From: Patescibacteria group bacterium
GTDB lineage: Bacteria; Patescibacteriota; Gracilibacteria; Peribacterales; Peribacteraceae
Direction of reading: 5' to 3'
Length of the DNA: 52,048 bases
NCBI GenBank assembly: GCA_018818235.1
Contig: JAHISE010000123.1
Span: 1 to 52,048, forward strand
Part shown: positions 21,362 to 44,189 of the stretch, piece after piece
Position numbering within the stretch: the first letter of the stretch is position 1
Layout of the letters: every line of letters begins with the position of its first letter
Position numbers and translations under genes: made by a program
The notes under the pieces: model-generated
What the model saw: only the letters and a program-made list of their open reading frames with translations
The model's database searches: none
Told to the model about the DNA's origin: nothing

Positions 21362-22873
21362 TTAGTGTCTAAACCCCCTCACCCCAGTCATCACCATTCC
21401 AATCCCCAGCTCATTTGCTTTTGTGATTACTTCTTCATCTCTGATCGAACCTCCGGGTTGTATGATCGCTGCAATTCCATTCTTTGCGGCTTCTTCCACG
21501 CTGTCGGGGAATGGGAAGAACGCATCGCTTGCCATTACTGCTCCCTTTGCTCTCTCCCCTGCTCGCCGAGCTGCAATGATTGTTGAATCAACACGACTAG
21601 TTTGTCCGCATCCGATCCCCACACTCACCAAATCTTTTGCAAAAACAATCGCATTACTTTTCGCGTGCTTAACAACTTTCCATGCAAAGAGGAGATCTTC
21701 GATCTGTTCATCAGTTGGTTTGGTTTCGGTGGCTACAGTCAGATCATCTTTGGTTACAATTTTTGTGTCTTGATTCTGAACCAGCATTCCCCCAAGAGAA
21801 GATCTGAAAGTAACCGCATCTTCATCCGGACATTGGTGTTCTATTGCGCGGATATTCGGACGCTTTTCTGCGAGGAATTCAAGGACACCATCTTCATATC
21901 CCGGTGCGATTATTACTTCGGTAAAGATTTTCTGCTCAATAATCTTGTCAATGATATTCTTTGTACATGGCCTGTTTAAGGCAACAATTACTCCGAAGGC
22001 AGAAAGGCGATCGGCATCGTAACTTCTTTGGAAAGCTTCTGCAATATCATCATTGACCGCCACACCGCAAGGGCTTGCGTGTTTAATGCATGCGCAAGAC
22101 GGTCTTTCAAATTCGCAAACCAGATTAAGCGCACCATCGGCATCCAAAATATTCAGGTAACTCATTTCTTTCCCCTGATGTAATTTCCATCTGGGCTTAT
22201 CTGATCCGTAAATATCGTAATATGTTCCCCATTGATGAGGATTCTCACCGTACCTCAGAACAGTTTTATTTGTCAGAAGAACTCCGGTGTGTGTTCCACC
22301 CGAAAGCGTTTGAGTAATTGCGGTGTCGTAAGCTGCAGTTCGAAGGAAAACTTTTCGTGCCAACTCACCTCTAAGTTCCGTTGAAGTTTCTCCGTTGTCT
22401 TTCAACTCATAAACCACCCGATCGTAATCACCAATGTCACAAATCACGGTTACATGATCTGCATTCTTTGCAGCAGCCCTTAGTAAACTCGGACCTCCGA
22501 TATCAATCTGTTCTACAAGTTCTTCTTGGGATACTCCTTCCTTCCTTGCAGTCTCCTCAAATGGATACAGATTCACAACCACCAGATCAATAGATTCAAT
22601 TCCAAGTTCTTTAGCCTGGGCTTCATCTTCACTGTTTCCACGGCGGAATAACAGTCCTCCGAATATGAGTGGGTGTAGAGTTTTAAGTCTTCCTCCAAAA
22701 CATTCGGGAAACTTGGTAATTTCTTCCACGGGAGTTACGGCAATATTGGCTTCCTTAAGGGCTTTTTCTGTCCCTCCTGTTGAAATTATCTCGTAATCGA
22801 GGTCAACAAGAGATGCTGCAAATGTGGTTAAGTTGGTTTTATCGGAAACGGAAATAAGAGCGCGCTTTTTCAT
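21362..22873 (-). CDS. purH: Bifunctional AICAR transformylase / IMP cyclohydrolase
   Basis: 503 aa from ATG 22873 (the track start TTG 22879 is also possible). N-terminal MGS-like domain (ALISVSDKT...STGGT...LKTLHP) and C-terminal AICARFT domain, colinear with PurH over the full length. Confidence 0.93.
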   Translation of the reverse strand: MKKRALISVSDKTNLTTFAASLVDLDYEIISTGGTEKALKEANIAVTPVEEITKFPECFGGRLKTLHPLIFGGLLFRRGNSEDEAQAKELGIESIDLVVVNLYPFEETARKEGVSQEELVEQIDIGGPSLLRAAAKNADHVTVICDIGDYDRVVYELKDNGETSTELRGELARKVFLRTAAYDTAITQTLSGGTHTGVLLTNKTVLRYGENPHQWGTYYDIYGSDKPRWKLHQGKEMSYLNILDADGALNLVCEFERPSCACIKHASPCGVAVNDDIAEAFQRSYDADRLSAFGVIVALNRPCTKNIIDKIIEQKIFTEVIIAPGYEDGVLEFLAEKRPNIRAIEHQCPDEDAVTFRSSLGGMLVQNQDTKIVTKDDLTVATETKPTDEQIEDLLFAWKVVKHAKSNAIVFAKDLVSVGIGCGQTSRVDSTIIAARRAGERAKGAVMASDAFFPFPDSVEEAAKNGIAAIIQPGGSIRDEEVITKANELGIGMVMTGVRGFRH

Positions 22874-22959
22874 AGACAAGATTTAGTTTAGCGCAATTTT
22901 TGTGGATTGCGTGTGAAATCTTAGCTTTTTATCTGACCTCCGCGCATAGGCGTGCTGCC

Positions 22960-23203
22960 CTCTCAAAGTCCGATCTCACCCCTTGGCCAGCTCTTCAATT
23001 GACCTCTCCTCCCGCCCCCCTCTCCCGAGTCTTTCCCCCTGCGCATCTGGCACGCCGGCCCCTCTCCCGAGTCTCTCCCTCTCCCCCGGCCCCTCTCCCG
23101 ATGGGAGAGGGGAGCTCTGCTATTGGAGAAATCAAAGTTTGTTATCTCTTTTTGCAGAGTTCCCCTCTCCTCCTCAGAGGAGAGGGGCCGGGGGTGAGGT
23201 CGG
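22960..23203. repeat. GC-rich hairpin repeat element, copy A (left flank of the pilus block)
   Basis: Contains strong hairpins cccctctccc-gat-gggagagggg and cccctctcctc-ctca-gaggagagggg. Its reverse complement matches 34532-34760 nearly base for base over the core (ccgacctcaccc..cccctctcctctgaggaggagaggggaactctgc...caatagcagagctcccctctcccatcgggagaggggccggggg). Confidence 0.85.
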
Positions 23204-23285
23204 ATAAGGATTTGACTTACAAATACCGTTATTAGTGTTTCATTTATATATTTTCTCCAGCAAAGTATCGGATGAACCCTTTTAG

Positions 23286-23383
23286 GGAAGCTATGAAAAA
23301 CACATGAAACGTAGCAGCGATTCGAAAATCACTGTGCTGTACGGCGGTTTTCGAACCGCCGCTACGAGTTTTTCAGAGCTTCC
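23286..23383 (+). other. Nested stem-loop element upstream of the response-regulator/pilB operon (possible structured leader or small RNA)
   Basis: Outer 16-bp stem ggaagctatgaaaaac / gtttttcagagcttcc with 1 mismatch. Inner hairpin cggcggtt-ttcg-aaccgccg (23342-23361). An alternative pairing is possible between cgtagcagcg and cgccgctacg. Confidence 0.3.
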
Positions 23384-23458
23384 TTAGCTTATATGATTAT
23401 TAATCAATAATATGTAAATTTACACAAGCCCTCAGATCTATCAAAAATGCCACTTTTC

Positions 23459-23467
23459 TGCTAAAAT
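23459..23467 (+). promoter_or_regulatory. Candidate extended -10 (TGCTAAAAT) for the RR-pilB-pilC operon
   Basis: TGnTAAAAT lies 56 nt upstream of ATG 23523. There is no convincing -35. Confidence 0.3.
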
Positions 23468-23522
23468 TAGAGGATTAACCTGTAATGAGGTAATCGAATT
23501 ATTGAATCTCATATCAATACAA

Positions 23523-24074
23523 ATGCCCGAAGATAAGCCCATAAAAACAAAGGCAGATCCTACCACTCAGCAGCACCCGTCCCCGGGTGCGGGGAAAGAG
23601 GAATCAACCTCCGCCAAGGCTACGGTCGACAAGAAGGAGGTATCAGCCTCCGCTGAAGCTATGGTCGACAAGAAGGAGACCGCCGAACCGGAGAAATCAT
23701 CGGGTGGATCCTCGGGCAAAAAGAAGGTGTTGATTGTGGAAGACGAAAAGCCATTGGCACATGCTTTGGAACTTAAACTTTCACACGAAGGTTTCGAGAC
23801 TCAGATAGTAAGCGATGGTGCTCAGGCTTTGGAGAAGGCAAAAGAATTTAAACCGGATATTATCCTTTTAGATTTAATTATGCCTTGTATGGATGGTTTT
23901 ACATTTCTTGAAGAACTAAAAAAAGAAGGAGCAAAGACTGCGGTGATAGTACTATCAAATCTTGGTCAGGACGAAGATCGTAAGCGTGCGGAGGAATATG
24001 GGGTTAAGGGTTATTTTGTAAAAGCAAATACTCCCATTTCTGACATTGTTAAACAGGTAAAAGCTGCAATTTAG
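23523..24074 (+). CDS. Stand-alone receiver (CheY-like) response regulator with a low-complexity N-extension
   Basis: 183 aa from ATG 23523 (track start is TTG 23502). Receiver motifs are KKVLIVEDE, DIILLDLIMPCMDG, VLSNLG and KGYFVKA, with no output domain. The N-extension carries two copies of the STSAKATVDKKE / SASAEAMVDKKE repeat. Confidence 0.88.
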   Translation: MPEDKPIKTKADPTTQQHPSPGAGKEESTSAKATVDKKEVSASAEAMVDKKETAEPEKSSGGSSGKKKVLIVEDEKPLAHALELKLSHEGFETQIVSDGAQALEKAKEFKPDIILLDLIMPCMDGFTFLEELKKEGAKTAVIVLSNLGQDEDRKRAEEYGVKGYFVKANTPISDIVKQVKAAI

Positions 24075-24078
24075 ATCT

Positions 24079-26208
24079 ATGCCATTAACTGATGACGCCA
24101 TCGGCACAATACTTCTGGAGCAAAGCTATGTCTCTGAAGAAGAATTAAAAAAAGCTTTGGAGAGATCAAAGGAAACAAAAGCTTCTCTGCTAAATATCCT
24201 GATGGATCAGGGACTTCTGACTCAACAGCTGTTCGAAAGTGCGCTTGCGGAGCATTACAAACTTGCATTTTATGACGTTCAGACCAATCCCCCTCCTTCC
24301 AATACCATCACGCTATTACCGGAGGAAATTGCTCGTGCTTATTCAGTCATAGTTGTTAAGAAAGAAGGAAGCAATATAACTGTTGCAACGTCAGATCCAA
24401 GTAATGAAACTTTGGAAGAGGCTATTAGGTTGAATCTTGAGCAAGAGGAAGCGGTGATTCCAGAGGGGGAAGAATCAGAGCCTGTGGAAGACGAAGGGGC
24501 TATAGATAAGGACATCGGACAGCGGACAGCGGACAGCGGGGAGGAGGCATCAGCCTCCGCCAAGGCTACGACCGACAAGAAAGATGATACAGAAGGTCGG
24601 GAAGGTTCCACCTCCGCTCCTGATGGAGCTACGGCGGACAGGCAGGAAAGTCAGGAAGGTTCGAAGGAAAAGGATGAATCAGAGTCCGATAATAAGCCAA
24701 CAGCAACCAAAGCAGAACCAGAGCAGGGATACCTCCCTGTGGAAGACAAAAAAAAGAAATCAAAAGGTTTTAGTTTTAGTTTTGGAAAAAAGAAACCAGA
24801 AAAAGCCGAACGTAAAAAGTTTACTGGTGAAATCACGTTCGTGTATTGCCCAAAAGCCAGCATTGATTCAATCTTTAAACATTATCAGAAACCACTTGCA
24901 ACGCGGTTTCAGCAAATTATCGATCAGGAACAAAAAGTAGCACCGGAAATTCTGGAAGAAATCTTGGATGATGCGATTCAACTTCGTGCTTCCGATATTC
25001 ACTTCGAGCCACAGGAAAAAATTGTAATAGTACGTTTTCGTGTGGACGGAGTTATGCACGAGGCGGGTCGTATCCCAAAAGAACATTACGAAGGGGTATT
25101 AAATAGAATCAAAATTGACGGAAATATGAGGATTGATGAACATTTCTCAGCTCAGGATGGTGCGATACGTCATAAAACATCGGTTGGACCAATTGATATC
25201 CGTGTTTCTATTGTTCCGATTGTAGATGGAGAGAAAGTTGTAATGCGTATTCTGGCTGAGTATGTACGTCATTTGACAATGACTGATTTGGGATTCACTC
25301 AAACAAATCAGGAAATTCTTACAAGGGCATCCAACAAACCATTTGGGATGATACTTACTACCGGTCCAACAGGATCAGGGAAATCAACGACGTTGTATGC
25401 ATTGGTAAAAATTCGCAATGCTCCTGATGTAAACATATCAACAATCGAAGATCCGGTTGAATATAAAATTGCCGGAATCAATCATATTCAGGTTAACAAC
25501 AAAGCGGAACTTACATTTGCAAAAGGACTAAGGGCACTTGTTCGTCAGGATCCTGATATCTTGCTTGTTGGTGAAATACGTGATGGGGAAACTGCGGATA
25601 TTTCTGTCAATGCGGCTCTTACTGGCCATCTGCTATTTTCAACTCTTCACGCAAATGATGCGGCAACGGCAATTCCGCGTCTGCTTGACATGGATGTTGA
25701 GCCGTTTCTACTCGCTTCAACTTTGGAAGTAATTATCGGGCAGCGTCTTGTGCGTCGAATATGTCCTCAGTGCAGATACAGTTATTCGGTTCCGGCAGAG
25801 GAATCAAAAAAGCTGTTTCCCGGAGCCGATAAATTCTTCAATGATGCAAAACCTGCGACTCTTTATCGTGGGAAAGGTTGCGAGTCGTGTGGCGATACCG
25901 GTTACAAAGGACGAGTTGGTATCTATGAACTTCTGGAAGTGACTTCCGAAATAGAGGAATTGATAATTGCAAGAGCAAGGAGCACGGAAATCAATAATGT
26001 AGCTCGCAAAAACGGAATGCGATTAATGTTTGAGGATGGTTTTGAAAAAGTTATCACAGGTATGACGACGATCGAGGAACTTGTAAGGGTTGCAGCACCA
26101 CCAGCCGTCGCTTCAGCCTCCGCCAAGGCTACGGCCGACAAGGAAGCTATGGCCGGCAAGCCGGATGTTGTTTTGTCCGCAGTCCCCAAAGAGGAAGATG
26201 AAAAATAA
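24079..26208 (+). CDS. pilB: Type IV pilus / T2SS assembly ATPase (PilB/GspE family)
   Basis: 709 aa. GspE_N-like N-domain, then a ~170-aa low-complexity insert. Walker A GPTGSGKST, Asp box IEDPVE, Walker B DILLVGEIRD, His box TGHLLFSTLH, and tetracysteine CPQC...CESC. Confidence 0.93.
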   Translation: MPLTDDAIGTILLEQSYVSEEELKKALERSKETKASLLNILMDQGLLTQQLFESALAEHYKLAFYDVQTNPPPSNTITLLPEEIARAYSVIVVKKEGSNITVATSDPSNETLEEAIRLNLEQEEAVIPEGEESEPVEDEGAIDKDIGQRTADSGEEASASAKATTDKKDDTEGREGSTSAPDGATADRQESQEGSKEKDESESDNKPTATKAEPEQGYLPVEDKKKKSKGFSFSFGKKKPEKAERKKFTGEITFVYCPKASIDSIFKHYQKPLATRFQQIIDQEQKVAPEILEEILDDAIQLRASDIHFEPQEKIVIVRFRVDGVMHEAGRIPKEHYEGVLNRIKIDGNMRIDEHFSAQDGAIRHKTSVGPIDIRVSIVPIVDGEKVVMRILAEYVRHLTMTDLGFTQTNQEILTRASNKPFGMILTTGPTGSGKSTTLYALVKIRNAPDVNISTIEDPVEYKIAGINHIQVNNKAELTFAKGLRALVRQDPDILLVGEIRDGETADISVNAALTGHLLFSTLHANDAATAIPRLLDMDVEPFLLASTLEVIIGQRLVRRICPQCRYSYSVPAEESKKLFPGADKFFNDAKPATLYRGKGCESCGDTGYKGRVGIYELLEVTSEIEELIIARARSTEINNVARKNGMRLMFEDGFEKVITGMTTIEELVRVAAPPAVASASAKATADKEAMAGKPDVVLSAVPKEEDEK

Positions 26209-27673
26209 GGATGTTGATTTGTCGGCTGCAGTAGGGAAGGAAATGAAAGGCCTGGAGAGTTCGGAAGGAAAGGAAGGTCAGGAAGGTTCGGATAGTACGG
26301 AAGGTAGGGAAGGTTTGCAGGAAAAGAATGCATCTAAGCAGGTGGGAGATAAACTTACGGTATTTCCAAAGGGGGTTGGGGGGCGTGCTCAAGAAGAGGG
26401 AAATGAGGAAAAGGAATTTGCAGCAAAAGCCCCAGTTAACATGTCATCTGTCGAACCTTCCCAACCTAATAAGTCCGAAAACACATTGGCATCAAAAAAA
26501 ACAAAAAAGAACAAAGAGCCCTTCTGGAAAAAATTTGGTAAAAAGAAATCTGTAGATGAGTCAGATAAAAAGAAAAAAAAGCCTGAATCAAAACTAATGG
26601 CAGCTCTCTCTTCCATCAATAATATGGGAATGGGGAAGCAGGTGCACATGTTTGTACAAAGTACTGCAACCATGTTAAATGCGGGGCTACCTCTTCTGGA
26701 AGCTCTAAAGACATTTCAAATGGAAACAAGAAGCAAGCCGATGAAAAAAATGGTCAGTCGTATTATTACAGATGTCGGAAACGGATCTCCGTTTTGGCGT
26801 GCAATGGACAGTCAGCATCTGTTTACACAATATGATATTGCAATGGTGCGCATTGGTGAGGAGGCCGGGAGCCTGGCACAGAATATGGTTTATTTGTCAC
26901 AACAAAGGGAAAAAGACAGATCACTAAGACAACAAGTTAAAATGGCAATGGTGTATCCGACAATAGTAATGGTTATGATGTTTATAATTGTCATGGGGTT
27001 GGGTCTTTTTGTATTGCCCAACCTTGTTCAGGTTTTGTTCTCTTTAAATGTGGAGCTTCCTTTGATGACACGAATTGTAATTTACATAACAAACATATTC
27101 AGTGACTATGGAAAAATCTTTGTGCCTTTGCTTATCTTAGGTTTTATCTTTTTTATTCTTCTTGGAAAATTTACAAGATTCAAAGTTGTTTCGCAGTGGA
27201 TTGTTTTTCATATACCCGGCATTGGTCGGTTAGGGAAAGAAGCTTCCATTGCCAGATTCGGAGTTGTACTCGGTGGACTTCTCCAAGCCGGAGTACCGGT
27301 GGTGGAAGCTTTGACATCACTTGTAAATGTTACGCAAATTGTCGCGCAAAAAAAACTATATGTGGAAATACTTGAGCACATAAAGATCGGTGATTCATTT
27401 CAAGCCTCATTTGAAAAGTGTAATGAAAGCGAGAGAATTCTTTCTGTTTCTGTCCAGCAGTTAATTATCGCGGGTGAAAAGTCAGGATCATTGGCCGAGA
27501 GCTTGCTTCAAATAGCTACCATATATGAAAAAAAGGCATCCGAGACAGCGAAGGCTTTACCTGTAATTCTGGAACCAATTCTACTTCTTTTCATCGGCGG
27601 GCTAGTTGCCGCCATTGCTTTTGCTATTATTGTTCCAATCTATAGCGTCGTTGGAAACATTAGTGGAGCTTAA
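26198..27673 (+). CDS. pilC: Type IV pilus platform protein (PilC/GspF family)
   Basis: 491 aa from ATG 26198, which overlaps the pilB stop (ATGAAAAATAA). It has two GspF-type repeats with TM helices ([57 protein letters not shown]). The N-extension is ~170 aa and Lys/Glu-rich. The track start at 26090 lies inside pilB. Confidence 0.9.
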
Positions 27674-27702
27674 AGACGCGCATTTCTATCCCCATCTTAA
27701 TT

Positions 27703-30681
27703 ATGAAACGTGGTTTTACTCTCATCGAGACGGCGGTCACATTGGCAATAGTAGGAGTATCTGCGGGTTTGGCTGTACCCATGTATCGCAATTATCAAAT
27801 AAGCAGTGACTTGGATTTGGCAACAAATCAGGTTGTGCAGGCTTTGCGTGGCGCGCAAATCAGATCTCAGTCCGGTGAAAGCGATGCGCAATGGGGACTT
27901 TATGTGCCCGAAGGAACAATTTACCAAGGTGAATCTTATGTGCTTCGTGAACCGGGGGTCGATGAGAAGTATTCACTTTCTCCTTCGGTTTCCACTTCCG
28001 GACTTTCTGAAGTCGCTTATTCTCGGGTAGATGGATTGCCGCAGCAAACCGGAGATATAATTATTACGGCAGTTAATGGAAAAAGCCGAATAATTACAAT
28101 TTCAGCGGATGGAATTTTGTCTTCTACTGGAATACAAGAGGCTCCGGTTGAATATGGAGTAGATGATGATGACGAAGGAGACGATGACGACGACGATGTG
28201 GGCGGTGTTGATAGTGATAGTGATGGTATTAATGATATTGACGAAGGAAGTGATGACATTGACGGTGACGGAGTTCCAAATTATCTGGATGATGACAGTG
28301 ACGGAGATGGTATTCCTGATTCAGAGGAAGGAGGAGGCGACAATGACATGGATGGAGTTCCCGATTATCTGGATGACGACAGTGACGGAGATGGGGTTCC
28401 GGATGCAGATGAGGGGATTGTGGATTCTGATGAGGACGGTATCCCTGATTATTTGGATGATGACAGTGATAATGATGGTATCCCCGACGGAGAGGATGAC
28501 GATAGGGATGGCAACGGTATTATTGATATCGATGAAGTTACGGATAATGATGCAGAAGAAGAACCTGGAGAAGAATGCGAAGACAGATTTACTGTTTCGA
28601 ATGATGGGACAATCGAAACTACCGGCACAGTTGATGTTACATTCAACGGTTTGGGATCAGATATTTTGTACGGAAGCAGAGGTAGAGTATCTGTCAATGC
28701 ATGGGCAAGTGTAAACGGAGGTAAAACTTGGATCCCGCTTTTCGAAGGAAGAGATATAAAAGGAAGTGTTCAAGATGTGACCACTATTAGAAACGTTCCA
28801 TCAAATAGCAAAATAATGGTAAGAATAAGCGGACGATATAGCTGGTACTTCAATAAAAAATATGAATCTAATGATAATTCCGGGCATATTTTGGTTTTGC
28901 GAAGGGGAAATAACGCACCTGACTACAAGCCATTAAGAAATCGTGGAGCCCTAAAAAAGTATCTTAAAGATTTATTTGATGTCAGAGGTAAAATTAAAAT
29001 CGGGAAATACGATACTGTTATCTTGGCTGAACTGGAATCCCTTAACAAAAACAAATCAGATTTTCAGGATGCGGTTATTCACGTAAAATTCGATCAAAAT
29101 AATAACAGTTGCGCCAGAGAAGATGAACCAAGATTTAAAGTCGTATTCGATCGTATCGAAAATGTCGATCAGGGAAATGCTGCAAACGAAGTATATGTCG
29201 GCGAATCTGCAATGCACTATTCTGAATCACAATGGATACCGCTAACACTCAGTGGAGTTGCAATTCTCGATAGCGGTCTGGATGAAAATGTTGAAGGTTT
29301 ATCGATAGAAAGACGTGAAGGAAAGGTGCGTGTTCTGTTACATGGTTCACATACCGGTATTTCAAAAGAAATAGTAGATGCTCGTATTGTTTTTGATAAC
29401 GCAGTTGTAACGGGCATGGAAAATGATAGCGGTAACAATCAGTCAGAAACTCCTTTCGATGGTGTTGTTAATGATGGCCCCTTGGGGGACGAGGCCACAG
29501 CTGGCGCGACAGAAGTTCTTTTCCAGACCAGAGTAACCAACTCGGATGATGCCATTATTATCAATTGGGCACAGGAAGCCGAGGAAGATGAAGTAGAAGA
29601 GGAGGAATCTGAAACACAGGGAGAAGATCCGGACATAGATCCTTGCGAGGCAGCTTATACCATAGAGGACGGCAATATTATTCTTGGGGAAAACGCACAT
29701 GTAACTTTCAGTACTCTTGGATCATATGCAAGGCATGGTAAAAATGGACCCGAAATTCAGGTTCGATTAAGTGCGAGTGTTGATGGTGGACAAACTTGGA
29801 GGACTCTTTACAATTATCATGATATTGACGGAGGCGAATCTCAGTCATTCGCAAATGTGCCTACGGGTAATAAAATTATGTTAAAGGTTGAGGGGCGATA
29901 CGGATGGGTTTTCAAGAAAAATGTTCAACTTAAGGATGGATCCGGACGAATGAAAATATTCAGATCAGGGGATGATGTTCCTCAGTTGGTTAGTTTTTTG
30001 AATCCGCAAAGATTGCAAAAATTTATGAGAGACAAGATCAAAAATCATAAGTTCGATATTGGCAGTAGAAGGGTATTGATAGTCACGGAACTTCAGGATT
30101 TGGACAGCCAGTCTGATTACCAGGATTCGGTTGTGGAGGTGATTATGGAGAAAACTTCGTGCGGTAGCGTGGAGGAGGACACGGAAGAAGTGGAGGAAAG
30201 AGAAATGGAAAACAAAGTTACAATATGTCATTACCCTCCGGGGAATCGGGATAATCCTCAGGTTTTGGTGATAGATATTGCGGCCTGGCCAACTCATAAA
30301 TTAAGAGGAGACCGTCTTGGAGCGTGTGAAGAAGACAGGGATGGAGACGGTGTACCAAACGCAATGGATCTTTGTCCGAATACATATGTTCCGGAAGGAG
30401 TTCCAAAGGAAGATATGAAGTTCAATCGTTTTGCGTTAACAAACAATAGTACGGTGTTCAGCAAGGGGCCGCGTAAGAAGATTGGTGAATTTACAATCAA
30501 TGACACCAAGGGTTGTAGCTGCGAACAGTTATTGGATGTCGCGGAAAATATCAAGTCTTATTATTTTGATCAGTATCCTCTGCTTCATCGCAATTTAAGA
30601 GCCTTATTCCCTGCCTATACGCAAGGTGCGAGAAGGAATGGCTGTTATTATAGGTTGTTGAATGTGGTAAAGAGGGGATGA
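27703..30681 (+). CDS. Giant (992 aa) prepilin-type protein with thrombospondin-type-3-like Ca-binding repeats and a duplicated ~180-aa domain
   Basis: Canonical class III signal [25 protein letters not shown] (G/F cleavage site, E+5). DxDxDGxxDxxD repeats are encoded at about 28190-28570. Two paralogous domains start at about 28576 and 29644 (...[16 protein letters not shown]...ISGRYSWYF... versus ...[16 protein letters not shown]...VEGRYGWVF...). A C-terminal CHYPPGN...[11 protein letters not shown] module is present. Confidence 0.88.
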
Positions 30682-30683
30682 TT

Positions 30684-30845
30684 TAGTTTGCTAGTTGACT
30701 AGTTTCTGGTTTTTAGTTCGCAAGCCACGTCACTCGCCACTGTCATTCACGAATGACGTGGTTCGCGATTGATCGTGGCAGGCGAAAACTTGGATGTTCA
30801 TTATCAAAATAACTAGTCAACTAGAAACTAGTAAACTTGATAACT
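30684..30845. repeat. Intercistronic palindromic element (ctagt-rich arms plus GC-rich core)
   Basis: Arms are tagtttgctagttgactagtttctgg and aactagtcaactagaaactagtaaact. The core agccacgtcactcgccactgtcattcacgaatgacgtggttcgcgattgatcgtggcaggcga (30723-30786) is ~85% identical to 33624-33686. Confidence 0.75.
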
Positions 30846-30874
30846 AACCCGATGTTGCTACGCTTACCTGTGCA

Positions 30875-32329
30875 TTGTCTAAATATTATCATCATCATCG
30901 CCCCGCCTTCTTCCTTCTCGATGTCCTACTCGGCATCTCCGTCTTTGCAATATTTATCGGAATCGCAGGTTACGCACTCATCTCCACACAAAATATTTCC
31001 ATAGTGAGTGGCGACAGAATCAGGGGAGCTTCTTTATCCCAACAGGCGATCGAAGCGGTGCGCAGTCTTCGTGATGATGATTTTGATAATCTTTCCGAAG
31101 GAACTTTTGGTTTGGCCATTAATTCTGTTAGTGGAGAATGGGAATTGAGTGGAGCAGGAACAGTCAGTGAGGATGGATTTACAACACAAGTTCAAATTTC
31201 ATTGCCCGATGAAGATCATGCATTAGTTTCTGCAGAAACAACTTGGTCATTCGGTTCCAATCGATCAGGAACATCATCAATAACAACGCAACTGAGCAAT
31301 TGGCAGCAGGTTAAAATAATCGGGAACTGGGAAGTGCTTTCAGAATTAAGTAGCATCGCCGAAGACCCCGCTCCGCGATTCAATGATATCGCGATTACAG
31401 GAAATTATGTATTTGTTACGAGTGAAGTTGCAACCGGAGGAGCCGGGCTTTATGTGTTTGATACGACTAATCTTTCGTTTCCTTCCCGTATTGCAGACGG
31501 ATTTAATCTGGGTGCAGACGGATATCAATTAATTGTTTGCGGAGATACACTTTATGTTCTCAGCACTTCTTCTTCTGCGGAGGTGAGAGCTTATAGCATC
31601 ACATCTCCCGAAGCATTTGCCGATGACAAATTGATAGGTTCATACAATATTCCCGGCTCAGGCAGAGCCAGATCCTTGGCAATCTTTGGATCAACTTTAT
31701 TTGTTGGCACTATTACTGATGCCGTTGAAGACGAAATATATGCGCTTGATATCACAGATCCAACGGATATTCAGCTTCTGGATTCATTGGATGACGACGG
31801 AAGTTATCTGGATATGTATTTGCATAATGGATATGCATATGTGAGCAGTACGGAAGACGTTGCTGAGTTAACAGTTGTTGATATTTTTGATCCTGCGGAC
31901 ATCAAGTTTGCTCCCGGGGTTGGTTACAATCTGACAGATGTACCTGACGGACTTGCGGTAATTGCATTTGGGAATTCTGTTTTATTGGGACGTGCCTATG
32001 GAGATGTGATTCAGGAGCTTGTGCTTTTTGATGTCGAAGAAAATCCCGTGCCCACTCCCCCGCCGGGACCTTGGTATCACGGAATCGGAGCGGACTTAAG
32101 TGCTTTGGATATTGAACCGGCTGGAGAATATACTTTTGCTGCAACAGCGCACGATTCAGCGGAACTGCAGGTGATAGATTTGGAAAAATTCCGGTTGGGT
32201 CAGCTTCCGCGTGTTGCAAGTATCGACACAGACACGGGGGTTGGCAGAGGTATTAAATATGATATTCAAAGAGATCGGCTATTCTTTACAACAGATTCTG
32301 CGATTCACATTTTTGCTCCCGGCATATGA
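30875..32329 (+). CDS. Pilin-like N-terminal helix fused to an LVIVD-type beta-propeller repeat domain
   Basis: 484 aa with a TTG start. The N-terminus RPAFFLLDVLLGISVFAIFIGIAGYALI is pilin-like but atypical (A instead of G at -1, D at +5). There are six or more repeats of the LVIVD style (LYVFDTTNLSFP, VRAYSITSPEAF, IYALDITDPTDI, LTVVDIFDPADI, LVLFDVEENPVP, LQVIDLEKF). Confidence 0.75.
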   Translation: MSKYYHHHRPAFFLLDVLLGISVFAIFIGIAGYALISTQNISIVSGDRIRGASLSQQAIEAVRSLRDDDFDNLSEGTFGLAINSVSGEWELSGAGTVSEDGFTTQVQISLPDEDHALVSAETTWSFGSNRSGTSSITTQLSNWQQVKIIGNWEVLSELSSIAEDPAPRFNDIAITGNYVFVTSEVATGGAGLYVFDTTNLSFPSRIADGFNLGADGYQLIVCGDTLYVLSTSSSAEVRAYSITSPEAFADDKLIGSYNIPGSGRARSLAIFGSTLFVGTITDAVEDEIYALDITDPTDIQLLDSLDDDGSYLDMYLHNGYAYVSSTEDVAELTVVDIFDPADIKFAPGVGYNLTDVPDGLAVIAFGNSVLLGRAYGDVIQELVLFDVEENPVPTPPPGPWYHGIGADLSALDIEPAGEYTFAATAHDSAELQVIDLEKFRLGQLPRVASIDTDTGVGRGIKYDIQRDRLFFTTDSAIHIFAPGI

Positions 32330-32745
32330 TCTATCACTCTTTCAAAAACGGCTACACCTTTCTGTTAAGCACTTTGTTTGTCGGGGCAATTGCAATTGCT
32401 GTCACGGGCACGATGCTGATGATGAGTTGGCTAACGCTGCGAAATGGACAGATTCTGGAGCAATCCGGCAGAGCTTACGAAATGGCAGCCACATGCGCAG
32501 AACACGGTCTTCTGGAATTATTTGAAGACAATGTTTACATAGGTAATGAAGATTTAGCCATTGGTGATGGAACCTGTTCTATTCTGACGGTTGGTGGATC
32601 GGGAAACGAAAGCAGAACATTGTGTACGGAAGGAGTGAGTGGTGGAACAACCAGAAGGCTGGAAATTATAATTGAAAAAATTCTTCCAACTATTGAAATA
32701 TTTGCATGGCAGGAGGTCGAAATGTTCTCTTCGTGTGAGTATTGA
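32326..32745 (+). CDS. Small pilus-associated protein with a hydrophobic N-terminal helix (PilX-like minor pilin candidate)
   Basis: 139 aa. The start ATG overlaps the upstream stop (ATGA). The N-terminus is NGYTFLLSTLFVGAIAIAVTGTMLMM. Confidence 0.65.
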   Translation: MIYHSFKNGYTFLLSTLFVGAIAIAVTGTMLMMSWLTLRNGQILEQSGRAYEMAATCAEHGLLELFEDNVYIGNEDLAIGDGTCSILTVGGSGNESRTLCTEGVSGGTTRRLEIIIEKILPTIEIFAWQEVEMFSSCEY

Positions 32746-32772
32746 TGAAGTTTTTACACTACTTAAGTGTAA

Positions 32773-32876
32773 GTTAACTAGTTTACTGGTTTACTAGTTT
32801 CTAGTTATGTAAACAATTGATAAGTCGAATCTGAAATTTGCTAAACTAGTTAACTAAAAACTAGTAAACTAGCAAC
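32773..32876. repeat. Intercistronic imperfect palindrome (arms only)
   Basis: gttaactagtttactggtttactagtttctagtt (32773-32806) pairs with aaactagttaactaaaaactagtaaactagcaac (32843-32876). The arms are about 34 nt and are imperfect reverse complements. Confidence 0.7.
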
Positions 32877-32891
32877 TGAACAGCATCCAAT

Positions 32892-33518
32892 ATGATTACA
32901 TCTAACAAACAAGGCACGTCCCTCGTAGAACTATTAATGTTCCTCGGCTTCTTCGCTCTTTGCAGTGGCGTACTGATCGGAGTGCTTGCAATGTCAAATG
33001 AACAGCGTGTTCGGCAACAAACTATTACAGATGTGGAACAAGAAGGAATGCAATTTCTTCAGATGTTAACCAGAAGAATGCGCAGTGCCGAAAGAATTAT
33101 TTTACCTGTAGCAGGTTCAACCGGCTCTGTGCTTGTTTTACAGATGTCTGATCAATCGCAAGATCCAACAATTATTGCATTGCAAACGGGATCTGTAAAA
33201 GTTGCTGAATCAAGTACGGTGCGCGTACTAAGTTCGAGCGGCATAGTTATTTCCAATATTGTTTTCAGAAACACCTCCGTATCCGCCAATCGTCAAAGTG
33301 GTCAGATTAATTTTGTTGTTACCCGCAGCGTTCCTATCCCAACCGGTGGAACATACACCCGTCCTTTTGGAACATCTGTAGTTCTGTTTTCCGATGATGA
33401 TCCTGGTGGAAATTCTTGCGGATGCGCTGTTCCTGTTTGTTCAAATGGATGGTTGAGTTGGGGGTATTGTGAGGGGGAGGTGTGTGAGGATGTGGGGGAG
33501 GTGGTGCCGTGTGATTGA
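32892..33518 (+). CDS. Prepilin-type minor pilin candidate
   Basis: 208 aa. N-terminus NKQGTSLVELLMFLGFFALCSGVLIGVL (G at -1, E at +5). The C-terminus is Cys-rich (CGCAVPVCSNGWLSWGYCEGEVCEDVGEVVPC). Confidence 0.75.
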   Translation: MITSNKQGTSLVELLMFLGFFALCSGVLIGVLAMSNEQRVRQQTITDVEQEGMQFLQMLTRRMRSAERIILPVAGSTGSVLVLQMSDQSQDPTIIALQTGSVKVAESSTVRVLSSSGIVISNIVFRNTSVSANRQSGQINFVVTRSVPIPTGGTYTRPFGTSVVLFSDDDPGGNSCGCAVPVCSNGWLSWGYCEGEVCEDVGEVVPCD

Positions 33519-33531
33519 TAGTTCTTATGTG

Positions 33532-33712
33532 TCACTAGTCACTGGTCGCTTGTCACTGGTCTTTTGTGTATTGATTGACTAGTGACCCTTCTTCGTTCGC
33601 TGCGGCGAACTCCGGACGGGTAGGCCACGTCACTCGCCACTGTTATTCGTGAATGACGTGGCTCGTGAGTGACCGTGGCAGGCGAGTGACTAGAGACCAG
33701 GGACCTTTCAGT
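33532..33712. repeat. Intercistronic palindromic element (gtcact-rich arms plus GC-rich core)
   Basis: The core ggccacgtcactcgccactgttattcgtgaatgacgtggctcgtgagtgaccgtggcaggcga (33624-33686) is homologous to 30723-30786 and partly to 49268-49310. The arms are cactagtcactggtc and gtgactagagaccag. Confidence 0.75.
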
Positions 33713-33843
33713 GATCAATTTATACATTTACATACTATTCACCACCCCCGTCAATCCAAACATAATTATTGAACAAAAAATTTGTTATACTTCTCAAAAG
33801 TCGTATTGCAACGACTCTTTACAATTCTTCCCCCCCTATCTTT

Positions 33844-34302
33844 ATGAAAATCCGTTTCCACAAAGGATTTACGCTCATCGAGCTCCTGCTGGTGATCGGT
33901 ATTATTGCTATTTTGGCATCCATTGTCATTGTGGCTATTAATCCGACCAAACAGCTAGGTGATGCACGTAATGCTCAGCGCCGCAGCGATGTGAACACAA
34001 TTCTAAATGCGGTTTATCAGTATGCCATTGATAACAATGGTACTTTGCCAGGTGCAATTCCAACCGGAACTGCAAAACAGATTTGTGAAGCTGCTACAAC
34101 AGGCACAGCTTGCACAGACGCTCCGGTAAGCGGTGTTGATCTTGCCAGTCTTGTTGGAACCTACATTGTAGGTATTCCCGAGGATCCTCAGGATACAACA
34201 GATGATACTGTCGGATACACTATTATTCAGGACGCCAATGGTCGTGTAACTGTTGCAGCACCGGGTGCTGAGCAGAGTGCGACGATCTCGGTGACTAGAT
34301 AA
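33844..34302 (+). CDS. Type IV pilin (major pilin candidate)
   Basis: 152 aa from ATG 33844. Canonical MKIRFHKGFTLIELLLVIGIIAILASIVIVAI (G/F cleavage site, E+5). It is small and is the last gene of the block. The track start at 33769 adds an implausible 25-aa extension. Confidence 0.9.
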   Translation: MKIRFHKGFTLIELLLVIGIIAILASIVIVAINPTKQLGDARNAQRRSDVNTILNAVYQYAIDNNGTLPGAIPTGTAKQICEAATTGTACTDAPVSGVDLASLVGTYIVGIPEDPQDTTDDTVGYTIIQDANGRVTVAAPGAEQSATISVTR

Positions 34303-34315
34303 TTAGTTTGAATTA

Positions 34316-34358
34316 GAAAGAAGCCCTTTTTTGCTTAGGCGGGAGGGGCTTCTTTTGG
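34316..34358 (+). terminator. Candidate intrinsic terminator after the pilin gene
   Basis: Stem aagaagccc / gggcttctt followed by ttgg. The loop is unusually large at about 20 nt. Confidence 0.4.
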
Positions 34359-34384
34359 TTATCGATTTGATCTCCGTGCATTGG

Positions 34385-34760
34385 CGCGCCGGCCCTTCTC
34401 CAACCGACCTCACCCCCGGCCCCTCTCCTCTGAGGAGGAGAGGGGAGCTCTACAAAAGGAGAGAACGAACTTTGATTATTCTATTTTTTGAGAGAGCAAA
34501 CTATGAATTCTCCAATAGCAGAGCTCCTAAACCGACCTCACCCCTAGCCCCTCTCCTCTGAGGAGGAGAGGGGAACTCTGCTAAAGGAGAGAACAAACTT
34601 TGAATTCATCAATAGCAGAGCTCCCCTCTCCCATCGGGAGAGGGGCCGGGGGAGAGGGGCGCAAGGGGGTGGGCCGGGGGAGAGGGAGACTCGGGAGTGG
34701 GCCGGGGGTGAGGTCGATTGCTGGGCATCTTCGAGGGGCTAGGGGGAGAGGGAAGACAAG
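34385..34760. repeat. GC-rich hairpin repeat element, copy B (right flank of the pilus block), about 1.5 tandem units, inverted relative to copy A
   Basis: Unit 1 spans 34404-34527 and unit 2 spans 34532-34760. Both start ccgacctcaccc...cccctctcctctgaggaggagagggg. Unit 2 continues through cccctctcccatcgggagaggggccggggg. It is the reverse complement of 22960-23203. Confidence 0.85.
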
Positions 34761-34866
34761 TGGAGCAGTGCCAGAGGCAAAGGGAGATTAAGGCAGTTAA
34801 GAAGAGTTTAGGTCAAAGAAAGCTAAAAACGGCAAGGATTAGCCAATAGACTAAAATCTAGAATCA

Positions 34867-34875
34867 TGCTATAAT
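34867..34875 (+). promoter_or_regulatory. Candidate extended -10 (TGCTATAAT) for the histidine kinase gene
   Basis: Perfect TGnTATAAT 17 nt upstream of ATG 34892, which implies a very short leader. Confidence 0.4.
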
Positions 34876-34891
34876 ATCTTATATACAAACA

Positions 34892-37099
34892 ATGACTACA
34901 GAAAGCGAAAAAACGAGGCTCTCCTCGCCGCGCACGTCCATACGCAAGCGTGCCGTTCGGTTGTATGTTCTCTTTGCAGCATGCATTGTTCTGGTGCTAA
35001 CTCTAAGTTCATTTTTTATGGCACGTGGGTTTCTGGAACAGAGAGTTCTCTCTCAGCTTTCTTCCATTGTTGCAGCCAAGGAAGATCTGGTTGAGCATGT
35101 TCTTAGGAACGACAGAGCACGAGTAGCGCTTCTTGCTACAAGGACAGAAGTTAAAGAAGTGATTCAAGGCAATAATACTCGTACCATTCTTAATGAGTTA
35201 ATAGAACGTATGAGAGAAGAGCATGTTCCGGTACTTGGTGTTGCAGTTTTTGATCTGTCCGGTCAAGAAGTATCCGGTGCCGGATTATCTGCAAGATCAA
35301 AACCTCCTGAACAAGAAAGCACAATACTGTATGCCATTACCGATGATTTCGGGTGGCAGGAATATGAAATCTTTTCGCCGGTGTATTTGGAAGGAAAGCA
35401 TATTGGAGTTATAGGAGTGCGTTATGATGCCCGTCCGCTTTTGGATACTCTTTTGTCGGTTGCATCCGTTGGTGAGACAGGAGAAGTTCTTTTGGGTGCA
35501 GAGCAAGATGGTAAGTTGGTTATATTACATCACAGATTTCAGCCGGACGGAGGAAAGACCCTGCTTCTTGGAGATATTGATGAGCAATATAGTTATGGTT
35601 CACCTCTTGCCAAAGCTGTAAAGGGTGAAGAAAGCCTTCGGCGCAGCGAAGATTATTCGGGGCAGGATGTATATGCCGCATATAGGACATTGCCAAGTTT
35701 GGGATGGGGATTGGTGGTTAAAATTAATCGTTATGAAGCACTGGCAGGTACCGTCAGACTGGCTTGGTTTATGGCAATTCTTGGGATAGTGCTTATATTC
35801 GGAGCAGGTTTAATAGCGGTTATACTTGCGAAGTATTTAACTGATCCAATTATGAGGCTCAGTAGAAAGATGCAAAAACTTGGTCCCGAGAATTGGGGCT
35901 TTAGGCGCAGTGTTTATACGGGGGATGAAGTGGAATTTCTCGATCAGGTGGCTACAGATATGGCAAGCAGACTTAAAGAAATCTACGGGCATTTGGAAGA
36001 GAAGGTTGCGGAAAGAACGCAAGAACTGAAAGCACAATATGCAAAAGATCGTGCGATTTTGGAGAGCATACAACACGGAATAATCACAGTGGGAAAAACC
36101 GGAGTCATTCTGAGTGTGAACCCTGCAGCCAGCTTACTTCTTGATATGGATATTACGGATCTAATTGGAACAAAAGCAGAAGAAACAATCAGATTTTGCA
36201 AAGAAGGCAAAACGCAGGAAGCTCAGAACAATCCAATAGTCAGATCTCTTGTAACCAGAAAAGTAGCTCGTATTGATAGCAATCAACACGTTAGTGTTCT
36301 GCAAAAAGACGAATCATTTCTTCCTGTCACGGCAATATCAGCTCCACTTTTGGACAAGGGGCAATTGCTGGGTGCGGTAATTGTATTTCAGGATGTTACG
36401 GAAGAAAGAAGGGTGGATTATATTAAGTCCGAATTTATTTCTCTGGCTTCACATCAGCTTCGCACTCCCCTTTCGACAATGAACTGGTATCTGGAACTAT
36501 TTTCTGATGAAAAAGAAGGACTTTCACAAATGCAAAAGGAATCAGTGAGAGAAATGGATAGAGCAAGCAAAAGAATGTCTGATCTTTTGGATACACTTTT
36601 GCATGCTGCAAGGCTTGAAGGAGGCAATATTATGCCAAATATTCGTAAGATAGATATTATTGCTTTTATGAATGATGTTGTTGCCGAATGTAGGTCGGTT
36701 GCAAAGATAGAGGGTGTAAATTGTAAGTCCGATATTTCGCAGGAGCCGATTACTATTAATACGGATCCCGTGTTGCTTAATGTGATTATTCAAAATCTTT
36801 TCAGCAATGCGGTAAAGTACTCGCCAAAAGGGGGCGACGTGAAAATCACGTTAAAGAGTGACGGAAAATATATCGATATTACGGTCAAAGATAGTGGAAT
36901 GGGGATTCCGGCGAACGAACAACACAGAGTTTTTGAGCGCTTATTCCGTGCCCGCAATGTCAAATCCATTGATACCGAAGGGAGTGGATTGGGTCTATAT
37001 ATTTCTAAAATGATTTCCGGAGTTATTGGTGGCGAGCTGACATTTGTAAGTGACGAGAAAAATGGAACGGTGTTTACGTTGAGGTTGCTTGTTGTCTGA
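34892..37099 (+). CDS. Sensor histidine kinase (extracytoplasmic sensor, HAMP, PAS-like, HisKA, HATPase_c)
   Basis: 735 aa. TM1 is LYVLFAACIVLVLTLSSFF and TM2 is AWFMAILGIVLIFGAGLIAVILA, flanking a ~250-aa outside domain. H-box SHQLRTPL, N box NAVKYSP, and G boxes DSGMGI and GSGLGL. Confidence 0.9.
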   Translation: MTTESEKTRLSSPRTSIRKRAVRLYVLFAACIVLVLTLSSFFMARGFLEQRVLSQLSSIVAAKEDLVEHVLRNDRARVALLATRTEVKEVIQGNNTRTILNELIERMREEHVPVLGVAVFDLSGQEVSGAGLSARSKPPEQESTILYAITDDFGWQEYEIFSPVYLEGKHIGVIGVRYDARPLLDTLLSVASVGETGEVLLGAEQDGKLVILHHRFQPDGGKTLLLGDIDEQYSYGSPLAKAVKGEESLRRSEDYSGQDVYAAYRTLPSLGWGLVVKINRYEALAGTVRLAWFMAILGIVLIFGAGLIAVILAKYLTDPIMRLSRKMQKLGPENWGFRRSVYTGDEVEFLDQVATDMASRLKEIYGHLEEKVAERTQELKAQYAKDRAILESIQHGIITVGKTGVILSVNPAASLLLDMDITDLIGTKAEETIRFCKEGKTQEAQNNPIVRSLVTRKVARIDSNQHVSVLQKDESFLPVTAISAPLLDKGQLLGAVIVFQDVTEERRVDYIKSEFISLASHQLRTPLSTMNWYLELFSDEKEGLSQMQKESVREMDRASKRMSDLLDTLLHAARLEGGNIMPNIRKIDIIAFMNDVVAECRSVAKIEGVNCKSDISQEPITINTDPVLLNVIIQNLFSNAVKYSPKGGDVKITLKSDGKYIDITVKDSGMGIPANEQHRVFERLFRARNVKSIDTEGSGLGLYISKMISGVIGGELTFVSDEKNGTVFTLRLLVV

Positions 37100-37763: not shown

Positions 37764-37840
37764 GCCACCTTAGCTCAGTTGGTCAGAGCAACTCACTTGT
37801 AATGAGTATGTCCGGGGTTCGAATCCCCGAGGTGGCTCCA
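37764..37840 (+). tRNA. tRNA-Thr (anticodon UGU), CCA encoded
   Basis: Full cloverleaf. Acceptor GCCACCU/AGGUGGC, D arm GCUC..GAGC, anticodon stem ACUCA/UGAGU with loop CU-UGU-AA, and T arm CGGGG-UUCGAAU-CCCCG. Discriminator U followed by CCA. Confidence 0.95.
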
Positions 37841-39418: not shown

Positions 39419-39550
39419 AGTTAAGGTGGTTAAAAACCCAAAAGGGCGACCCTGGAACCCCAACATCGGTCGTAGGACTTAGTCGGCAGGATCGCCCTCT
39501 TGGGCGACTACATGAAAGACCTACGAGCTGTGATGTGGGGTTCGATATAA

Positions 39551-40819: not shown

Positions 40820-40959
40820 TTTCTAAGTTCGTTAAGAGATAAAGTCTTATAGCGCTTAAAACGCGGTTTGGTGTATCCGCAATACGAATCTGTCCATGTG
40901 AGCTCTTTGTCGAGCACTAAAATTTCAAATTTATTGTCATAAGAGTTATAATTAGACAT
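40801..40959 (-). CDS. Small hypothetical protein (52 aa)
   Basis: This ORF is below the track cut-off: MSNYNSYDNKFEILVLDKELTWTDSYCGYTKPRFKRYKTLSLNELRKCLNHK. It overlaps the start of the downstream gene by 19 nt and fills an otherwise empty gap in a co-directional gene string. Confidence 0.35.
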   Translation of the reverse strand: MSNYNSYDNKFEILVLDKELTWTDSYCGYTKPRFKRYKTLSLNELRKCLNHK

Positions 40960-41019
40960 GATTTAACAGGGGAATAAGTAAAATTGAGTGTCTAGCTCGG
41001 TTCGCTTGTTTCCCCTACG

Positions 41020-41181
41020 TTAAGGAGGTTTTTCTGGGTCTAAAACGAATTGCATTACATCAAGTAGGCTCTCTCCATATTCCCTGGCCTGTTCATTTGT
41101 GAGCTTTTGCCCGAACTCCTTTTCCCAAAGTTCACCAAATGTGCCGGCAGATTTATCTGTCAGTCTTATCTTTGATTCCAT
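41020..41181 (-). CDS. Small hypothetical protein (53 aa)
   Basis: This ORF is below the track cut-off: MESKIRLTDKSAGTFGELWEKEFGQKLTNEQAREYGESLLDVMQFVLDPEKPP. Its start overlaps the stop of the upstream gene (41166-41411). Confidence 0.35.
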   Translation of the reverse strand: MESKIRLTDKSAGTFGELWEKEFGQKLTNEQAREYGESLLDVMQFVLDPEKPP

Positions 41182-41411: not shown

Positions 41412-41484
41412 AAATTAATTGGGAATGTTGGCACGCCCAATTTTATTTATAAAAAGCAGAAACAAGTCCTGACTCAGACCTGAC

Positions 41485-43073: not shown

Positions 43074-43105
43074 GCTCAAATTTTATCTAAATCCTTAGGA
43101 GTAGG

Positions 43106-43128
43106 TTGTCATGGACATAAAGTCCTAG
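43106..43128 (+). repeat. Junction motif copy a: TTGTCATGGACATAAAGTCCTAG
   Basis: Ends 8 nt before ATG 43137. Confidence 0.85.
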
Positions 43129-43136
43129 TTAAAGAT

Positions 43137-44188: not shown

Positions 44189-44189
44189 G

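Follow-up and report, generated by a model that had tools for sequence, protein, structure and literature searches.

What, if anything, does it mean for a type IV pilus operon to lie between two inverted copies of a structured, GC-rich repeat? The question is raised by contig JAHISE010000123.1 of assembly GCA_018818235.1, from a Peribacteraceae bacterium of the candidate phyla radiation (CPR) with a genome of 1.58 Mb in 164 contigs, whose PilB relatives place it among the Peregrinibacteria / Candidatus Peribacteraceae. The stretch analysed, called the window here, is 52,048 nt long and is contig C19 of this genome, which we refer to as G000. An initial annotation had noticed the two copies, A and B, and had proposed that they could be insertions resembling miniature inverted-repeat transposable elements (MITEs), insulating terminators, or substrates for inversion or excision of the whole pilus block. 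As it also stated, and as Pfam annotation confirms, a response regulator (RR) gene lies just inside copy A, a histidine kinase (HK) gene lies just beyond copy B, and RR, pilB and pilC belong to one co-directional block between them. We consider it about 80% probable that the copies were inserted independently, have since decayed and belong to a genome-wide family of selfish, mosaic palindromic repeats, and that their bracketing of the operon in inverted orientation is coincidental. For the pilus locus this answer is deflationary, as it reduces a possible switch or cassette to a pair of repeats inserted into slack DNA.

The inverted repeat itself is real. A repeat search of the window recovered two inverted arms of 134 nt (Table 1), 93% complementary and 11,314 nt apart, and the extra half unit that had been described in copy B is borne out by two further pairings with copy A (23130-23203 with 34404-34477, 74 nt, 93%; 23111-23148 with 34490-34527, 38 nt, 89%). 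The claim that copy A matches copy B unit 2 over its full span stands only in part. Global alignment of 22960-23203 with the reverse complement of 34532-34760 gave 76% identity, with a near-perfect likeness across the inner 134 nt and a weak one over the outer ~100 nt. Similarly, the copies are GC-rich relative to the genome, although a content of 65-70% in a genome below 40% was slightly overstated: copy A has 62%, copy B 58-64%, and the genome mean is 41.2%. For the 134-nt unit of copy A the fold is a single long hairpin (-47.1 kcal/mol, z = -7.7 against shuffled sequences), and copy B unit 2 folds comparably (-39.6 kcal/mol, z = -7.0). No structure forms in the C-rich left part of copy A (22960-23080; z = +2.05), which has only a weak match in copy B. 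Across the genome, 137 GC-rich perfect hairpins of 9 bp were counted and none in a shuffled genome, which places the repeat far above chance; 68 of the 137 bear both stems of the copy A/B family.

The anatomy of the palindrome gives the family a recognizable architecture. Its basic module consists of a C-stem, a loop, a G-stem, CCG and a mirror G-stem, which in copy B reads CCCCTCTCCC-ATC-GGGAGAGGGG-CCG-GGGGAGAGGG. Two such modules, inverted around an AT-rich core, make a long hairpin of ~130-230 bp bounded by 25-nt terminal inverted repeats (TIRs). Arm A follows this plan, with a triplex-type motif CCCTCTCCCCC-GG-CCCCTCTCCC-GATG-GGGAGAGGGG, the AT-rich core, a second hairpin with CCG, and a GGGGTGAGGTCGG terminus. 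Outward-facing pairs of the 25-nt TIR less than 500 nt apart (mostly 150-230 nt) occur at 13 loci, and hence each element has terminal inverted repeats of its own. This layout recalls the triplex motif (TM) repeats of Escherichia coli, whose consensus TM_ECO is CCCTCNCCC N3-6 GGGNGAGGG N3 GGGNGAGGG, with CCG as the second loop in type B (Holder et al. 2015, PMC4666352, which cites earlier work by Bachellier and by Hoyne/Maher). The strict form of this consensus, with 9-nt stems and a 3-nt loop, has six matches in the genome and a relaxed form has 30, while a reversed-genome control gave none for either. The window copies fit the relaxed form only, because their stems, which enclose a CCG loop, are one base longer (10 nt). 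Judged by architecture and duplex fold, therefore, the element is a long hairpin of BoxC/PIT/TM_ECO-type intrastrand-triplex motifs.

Within a family of selfish palindromic repeats that extends over the whole genome, copies A and B are ordinary members. The 134-nt unit as a BLAST query had 112 matches in the genome, and both full copies as queries found 84 loci that collapse into at least 72 clusters on 50 of the 164 contigs. These clusters lie between tandem (27), divergent (15) or convergent genes (7), at contig ends (16) and inside open reading frames (ORFs; 7). The 25-nt marker, which is asymmetric, has 30 copies on one strand and 23 on the other, and points toward a gene start 20 times and toward a gene stop 23 times. 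Thus the genome-wide search for copies that the initial annotation had called for finds the element at dozens of unrelated sites with no orientation pattern, the first of the two observations that it had named as refuting its reading. An apparent tendency of the marker tails to face inward (three of four long-range marker pairs) was dismissed, since complete elements carry the marker at both ends and its strand indicates only the end that has decayed less. At least ten other contigs hold two or more clusters, spaced from a few hundred bp to 30 kb, and at the density of the genome ~2.4 clusters are expected per 52 kb, where the window has two. A gene block between two copies is therefore commonplace. 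An Rfam search of 22700-35000 returned only sub-threshold matches to microRNA precursor models (25-37 bits against gathering thresholds of 57-230), which we take as a chance likeness of hairpin shape, and a literature search on Peregrinibacteria repeats found nothing relevant.

Comparison with related genomes indicates when the copies arrived. Ten related loci, from three congeners and from more distant Peribacteria (some at 49-54% GC), share the order and orientation of the window: purH on the minus strand, then RR, pilB, pilC, the big pilin, p484, p139, p208, pilin and HK. The purH gene is the neighbour in nine of the ten, the tenth contig beginning within the RR gene, and HK is the neighbour in all seven relatives whose contigs extend to that side. 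The full element is absent from both boundaries of the pilus block in all ten, and the sole trace, seen in one species, is a 49-nt hairpin between purH and RR. Because relatives without the full element have the same orientation, the present orientation is ancestral and copies A and B are later insertions. Both lie in slack intergenic DNA at operon boundaries. Of the roles first proposed, that of MITE-like insertions is thus the one that holds, given TIR-bounded elements in at least 72 clusters and relatives that lack the full element at both sites.

The proposal that the 11-kb block is inverted or excised by a programmed process acting on the inverted pair, for phase variation or mobilisation, finds no support, and we regard it as extremely improbable. 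In its favour, the 134-nt arms are 93% identical and inverted 11.3 kb apart, and TM-type repeats have been linked with local genome variability in E. coli (PMC4666352). However, the orientation is constant, among the ten relatives as well as in assemblies made independently from the same population, where contig L187 is identical to the window across copy A. These contigs were found by exact-protein look-up with HK and PilB; look-ups with the last pilin and purH gave no match, probably because start codons were called differently. Several short contigs from other assemblies break inside copy A or copy B, as expected of a repeat, so the copies also interrupt short-read assemblies at the pilus locus. 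One contig from another sample, L117, joins the HK side of copy B to a different locus, which could be mistaken for an inversion junction. It leaves copy B at 34551, and its positions 1-102 equal G000 C138:1-102 at the end of that contig, whereas an inversion would join it to the inner side of copy A; we therefore rejected this candidate, which is either a chimera or a product of recombination with a third copy. Furthermore, promoter-like sites upstream of RR lie inside the segment, so that inversion would carry them along and switch nothing, and many other, unrelated gene blocks likewise lie between members of the family. No recombinase was found adjoining either arm, the nearest being a serine recombinase in a separate 11.4-kb element that is absent from the other sample.

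That 11.4-kb segment (37841-49209) is a separate feature of the contig. It starts with the serine recombinase gene (37793-39466, minus strand; Resolvase and Recombinase Pfam matches), and in L117 position 37840 is followed immediately by 49210, at 100% identity, so that the segment is precisely absent there. To all appearances it is an integrated mobile element whose empty site is also present in the population.

A cis-regulatory or insulating function for the pilus operon is also very improbable. Very stable hairpins at both boundaries of an operon might act as terminators, attenuators, mRNA-stabilising structures or supercoiling barriers, and roles of this kind have been proposed for REP and BIME elements (for REP, PMC3733652). 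The suggestion of insulating terminators nevertheless finds no support at the sites: neither copy contains a hairpin followed by a T-run, and copy B lies beyond the operon's own terminator-like site at 34325-34348. Copy A sits between the divergent starts of purH and RR, where there is nothing to terminate, with promoter-like sites downstream of it at 23370-23448. The family has no preference for orientation or context and occurs even inside ORFs, and the ten relatives run the same operon without full elements. In E. coli, moreover, PIT/TM elements showed neither promoter nor terminator activity (PMC4666352).

If the copies are selfish insertions, how did they spread? The copies most similar to the window unit point first to a carrier. 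When these are aligned, a palindrome of ~200 bp appears nested in a composite of 313-368 bp with 21-nt TIRs of its own (GGATCAG[T/G]AGATAATTTACTG, seven pairs) and 8-bp target-site duplications (TSDs), which are perfect in four of six evaluable composites (C4, C10, C38, C104) and match at 7/8 in C138. Complete composites are found on C4, C10, C16, C33, C38, C104 (at 4227-4548, for example) and C138, and all seven carry the TM-type palindrome. The outer composite is a classical MITE. Its 'Y' end module has at least 12 copies and adjoins a TM element in all copies examined. Since copy A ends in the outer TIR (Table 1), it was probably delivered by this MITE. The only distant left/right pair of outer TIRs, C107:6099-14413, was considered as an autonomous partner and rejected, as it encloses glycosyltransferase genes and has no TSD. 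This 8.3-kb glycosyltransferase cluster does lie between left- and right-type outer TIRs in an element-like orientation, and is itself a case of repeats bracketing genes.

A second relation is suggested by three wider pairs of the inner TIR (C76:3903-4411, C128:34217-34753 and C137:11032-11613), each of ~510-580 bp and each enclosing a single ORF of ~120-140 aa. All three ORFs belong to DUF559 (PF04480; E = 1e-31 to 1e-36; 107-123 bits against a cut-off of 20.6), to our knowledge a very large family with almost no assigned role. The genome encodes seven DUF559 paralogs, and all seven are flanked on both sides by hairpins of the family type, against a background in which the motif occurs on both sides of 1.2% of 1112 crude gene calls. 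Both cassette ends are matched by the window copies at 86-98%, to a few nt from the stop codon and ~40 nt from the start, just as miniature elements usually relate to their full-length forms. Hence the ORF-less copies in the window may be the miniature form of a DUF559 cassette. All seven paralogs keep the motif E-x-D-G-x-x-H...D-x-x-R, and the nearest solved structure is that of the Neisseria endonuclease-like protein 3hrl (E = 6e-13). DUF559 has been grouped with Vsr and the homing endonuclease I-Bth0305I (PMC3424549, PMC9403480), and DUF559 genes are 14-fold enriched among predicted targets of programmed inversion, where they are flanked by inverted repeats (PMC9881135).

The association extends beyond this genome. 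Elsewhere, the motif has a density of 5.5 per kb within 200 nt of DUF559 genes against 0.22, a 25-fold enrichment (p = 7e-40). In these other genomes it lies on both sides of 11 of 29 such genes (38%) and on at least one side of 66%, and 13 of the 29 are bracketed by inverted repeats of 19-35 nt (shuffled controls, at most 14). All 20 hairpin-bearing genomes have DUF559. A sample drawn from the opposite direction agrees: exact matches to the 25-nt TIR were found on 66 metagenome contigs, and five of these, picked by the TIR alone, have DUF559 within 300 nt. Three of the five come from other organisms, with DUF559 only ~40% identical. In one CPR genome, then, BoxC/TM-type repeats and DUF559 are linked by several independent lines, namely matching ends, the flanking of all seven paralogs, enrichment elsewhere, a correlation of copy numbers and the repeat-first metagenome sample.

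Members of the family also survive within housekeeping genes, which is here demonstrated for a reduced CPR genome. Hairpin-only copies are translated in frame in Tgt (C46:2720-2757), RsmG (C75:4877-4912), a glycosyltransferase (C156:5335-5394) and a FemAB-like protein (C32:8825-8873), adding 12-20 residues rich in P, S and G. The Tgt insert is specific to this genome, and the same loop in congener G004 holds a different perfect palindrome, GTTGTAGGGTCACAGCGCGCTGTGACCCTACAAC. The most elaborate case is the riboflavin synthase RibE (G000 C16:2374-3675, locus L111), in which a single frame of 434-437 aa contains a 37-aa translated hairpin and, in the inter-domain linker, a complete DUF559 flanked by translated repeats. 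An orthologous in-frame DUF559 is present in two congeners (G001:C7, G002:C45) and the site is empty in four (G004-G007). Thus, as with a homing endonuclease, the site is filled in some genomes (three) and empty in close relatives (four). Between G001 and G002, dN/dS of the inserted DUF559 is 0.10, similar to that of RibE itself, which indicates purifying selection. The RibE case resembles both the palindromic elements of Rickettsia and the site polymorphism of homing endonucleases.

Taken together, these observations suggest a possible mechanism. The DUF559 nuclease would recognise the motif and drive, or once have driven, the spread of its cassette, an idea that we hold tentatively and at somewhat less than even odds. 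Such an element would consist of a minimal gene for a Vsr-fold nuclease between structured, G/C-rich palindromic ends; it would shed ORF-less miniatures into intergenic DNA, in-frame translation would let it survive in essential genes, and ordinary MITEs could carry it further. We know of no enzyme or spreading mechanism for BoxC/PIT/TM_ECO repeats, although they have been known since the 1990s. The broader proposal, that DUF559 is the enzyme that spreads these repeats, and thus the missing partner of BoxC/PIT/triplex-motif repeats in an undescribed class of selfish element, is more doubtful still. If it were true, this Peribacteraceae genome would count as unusually active, with seven nuclease paralogs, ~75 canonical hairpins and a RibE site filled or empty among congeners. 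In E. coli no mobility gene was ever found near TM_ECO motifs (PMC4666352). That paper makes no mention of ycjD, fabI or sapF, and it therefore offers no test of a DUF559 link in that species.

Several points weigh against this account as a whole. The cassette gene is a DUF559 gene of the Vsr-like PD-(D/E)xK type and thus a predicted nuclease, its activity likewise a prediction. The main caveat on the nuclease as mobiliser is that the copies closest to the window unit (93-97% identity) mostly lie in outer composites, while the DUF559 paralogs are old (37-73% amino-acid identity); recent amplification may therefore owe nothing to DUF559. DUF559 is also present in 12 of 21 related genomes without the exact hairpin, and the correlation of canonical hairpin count with DUF559 copy number over 41 genomes (rho = 0.67, p = 2e-6) ignores phylogeny. 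The nuclease may have come along as a passenger, or it may have invaded a palindrome that already existed. On the side of the repeats, no transposase partner of the outer MITE was found, and for the inner TM palindromes, as for both window copies, neither a TSD nor an empty site was definable. Finally, rare RecA-mediated inversion between the 134-nt arms may take place at low frequency.

Alternatively, the pairing of nuclease and repeats might serve the host, as a nuclease-plus-motif system that modulates the processing or uptake of incoming or single-stranded DNA in the manner of Ssn/NTS in Neisseria, with the window copies, beside DNA-uptake-type pilus genes, forming part of the network. The flanking frequencies are suggestive, since the Ssn motif lies on both sides of 42% of genes and on at least one side of 71% (Chenal et al. 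2025, PMC11893778), values close to the 38% and 66% for DUF559 in the relatives, with seven of seven flanked here. The hairpin stem is kept across genera and in some other families of the class, the nuclease motif is intact in all seven paralogs, and the RibE insert of G001 and G002 is under purifying selection. Nevertheless, we find a host function improbable. Insertion in frame into housekeeping genes and transport inside a MITE that makes TSDs look selfish, copy numbers within a single genus differ 75-fold, and relatives run the same pilus locus without full repeats. In addition, DUF559 has the PD-(D/E)xK fold and not that of GIY-YIG nucleases.

It is likewise extremely improbable that the elements are REP/REPIN sequences mobilised by RAYT, a Y1 transposase of the HUH type. 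They do form a REPIN-like long hairpin of two inverted hairpins, some copies have GTAG beside the stem, and two RAYT-like genes (PF01797) are present in the genome. However, these two genes are flanked by quite different hairpins (GCGGGGAGGTATCCCCGC and GCAGGGATACTTCCCTGC at one, CAGCAGCACCCGCCCTCGGGTGCGG at the other), their contigs hold no member of the copy A/B family, and the gene that is flanked by the family's motif is DUF559. RAYT was therefore rejected as the mobiliser. The two genes (C90:9725-10162, L069 1225-1662; C106:5134-5646, L070 1135-1647) have their own hairpins on both sides, and the genome thus also seems to hold separate REP/RAYT-type systems.

The features of the locus are collected in Table 1. 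The parts of composite copy A were assigned by module homology to the composite MITE alignment, and its left boundary is approximate because this end is degenerate. Five pilin genes had been counted in the initial annotation; two have a Pfam N_methyl match, and the other three are pilin-like by their N-termini only. Besides copy A, an unrelated hairpin-rich repeat lies in the purH-RR spacer, which is thus a dump for several repeat families. The operon itself contains a 47-nt repeat coding for ...ASASAKAT(T/V)DKK... (23592-23677, 24538-24584 and 26101-26147 in the window), twice in the non-conserved N-terminal extension of RR, once in the inter-domain linker of PilB and once in its C-terminal tail; only three more copies occur elsewhere in the genome (C44, C98, C103).

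Table 1. Features of the pilus locus and of the two repeat copies (positions in the window)
Feature	Position	Strand	Evidence or remarks
purH (AICARFT/IMPCHase)	21362-22879	-	Pfam PF01808, E = 1.7e-103; divergent from pilus operon
Composite copy A	22907-23279	.	degenerate 'X' end-module remnant, GACCTCCGCGCATAGGCG hairpin module, C-rich tract, 134-nt palindrome, 'Y' end module
C/T-rich tract with short CCCTCTCCC-type direct repeats	22960-23076	.	outer, poorly conserved part of copy A
134-nt palindromic unit, arm A	23077-23210	+	repeat search, 112 genome matches, fold; relaxed TM motif match 23077-23111
25-nt TIR GAGGAGAGGGGCCGGGGGTGAGGTC	23177-23201	+	53 copies in genome
'Y' end module of outer classical MITE	23205-23278	+	ends in outer TIR CAGCAAAGTATCGGATGAACC (23258-23278)
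Unrelated ~105-nt hairpin-rich repeat (...GTAGCAGCGATTCGAAAATCACTGTGCTGTACGGCGGTTTTCGAACCGCCGCTACGAG...)	23282-23387	+	another dispersed family; ~8 further copies on other contigs
Type IV pilus operon	23502-34302	+	Pfam, N-termini, gene order kept in 10 relatives
Response regulator, receiver-only	23502-24074	+	Pfam
PilB/T2SSE	24079-26208	+	Pfam
PilC/T2SSF	between PilB and 992-aa prepilin	+	Pfam
992-aa prepilin	27703-30681	+	
Three small proteins with pilin-like hydrophobic N-termini	between 992-aa prepilin and last prepilin	+	
Canonical prepilin	33769-34302	+	
Operon's own intrinsic terminator-like hairpin with T-run	34325-34352	+	upstream of copy B
Composite copy B	34378-34760	.	GATCTCCGTGCATTGGCGCGCCGG hairpin module, unit 1, unit 2, G-rich tail
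Copy B unit 1 (extra half unit)	34404-34527		TIR, hairpin and long core
Copy B unit 2 (arm B)	34525-34658		relaxed TM motif match 34624-34658
Copy B G-rich tail, GGGGTGAGGTCG terminus	~34718		
HK promoter-like site, TAGACT-17-TATAAT with TG	34847-34875	+	downstream of copy B; consensus match only
Cache-PAS histidine kinase	34892-37099	+	Pfam; beyond copy B

Among known systems, the closest in form are the BoxC/PIT/TM_ECO repeats, which share the module architecture in nearly the same letters, are dispersed between genes without strand bias, frequently occur as inverted motif pairs, vary widely in copy number among close relatives and are tied to locally variable DNA. Our elements differ in their 10-nt stems and in their CPR host, the others being known from E. 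coli and other Proteobacteria. They differ further in that the motifs here end DUF559 cassettes, and in that seven clusters lie in ORFs and copies occur in frame in genes. Classical MITEs such as Correia/NEMIS or Nezha are also short, ORF-less, TIR-bounded and present in tens of copies, with a longer form that has the same ends and carries a gene, and the outer composite with its TIRs and TSDs conforms to this pattern. Unlike in those systems, however, the long form of the inner element carries a PD-(D/E)xK nuclease in place of a DDE or HUH transposase, the inner palindrome has no visible TSD, and the outer MITE has no transposase partner that we could find. With REP/REPIN-RAYT systems the family shares dispersed GC-rich palindromes that pair into long hairpins, and a small nuclease-type gene between repeats of its own whose sequence varies with the gene lineage. 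The flanked gene is DUF559, however, and not a Y1 HUH transposase, and the RAYT-like genes of this genome have other hairpins.

The remaining likenesses concern single properties. The palindromic elements of Rickettsia are similarly translated in frame in conserved genes, although they have no sequence relation to ours, most copies of which are intergenic. The EDxHD/Vsr-like homing endonucleases (I-Bth0305I; PMC3424549, PMC9403480) belong to the same PD-(D/E)xK clade and likewise show filled and empty sites; in our case no intron or intein is involved, and the nuclease is simply translated within RibE. The system of Ssn, a GIY-YIG nuclease, and its NTS/SRM repeats (PMC11893778) differs in nuclease fold and in motif, and neither in-frame insertion nor hitch-hiking in a MITE has been described for SRM; DUF559, for its part, is known here from sequence alone. 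Yet in both systems a small nuclease gene lies among tens to hundreds of scattered copies of a hairpin motif, and the association frequencies are almost identical. By this likeness, the pairing of DUF559 with its repeats is best described as an analogue of Ssn/SRM and not as a member of that system.

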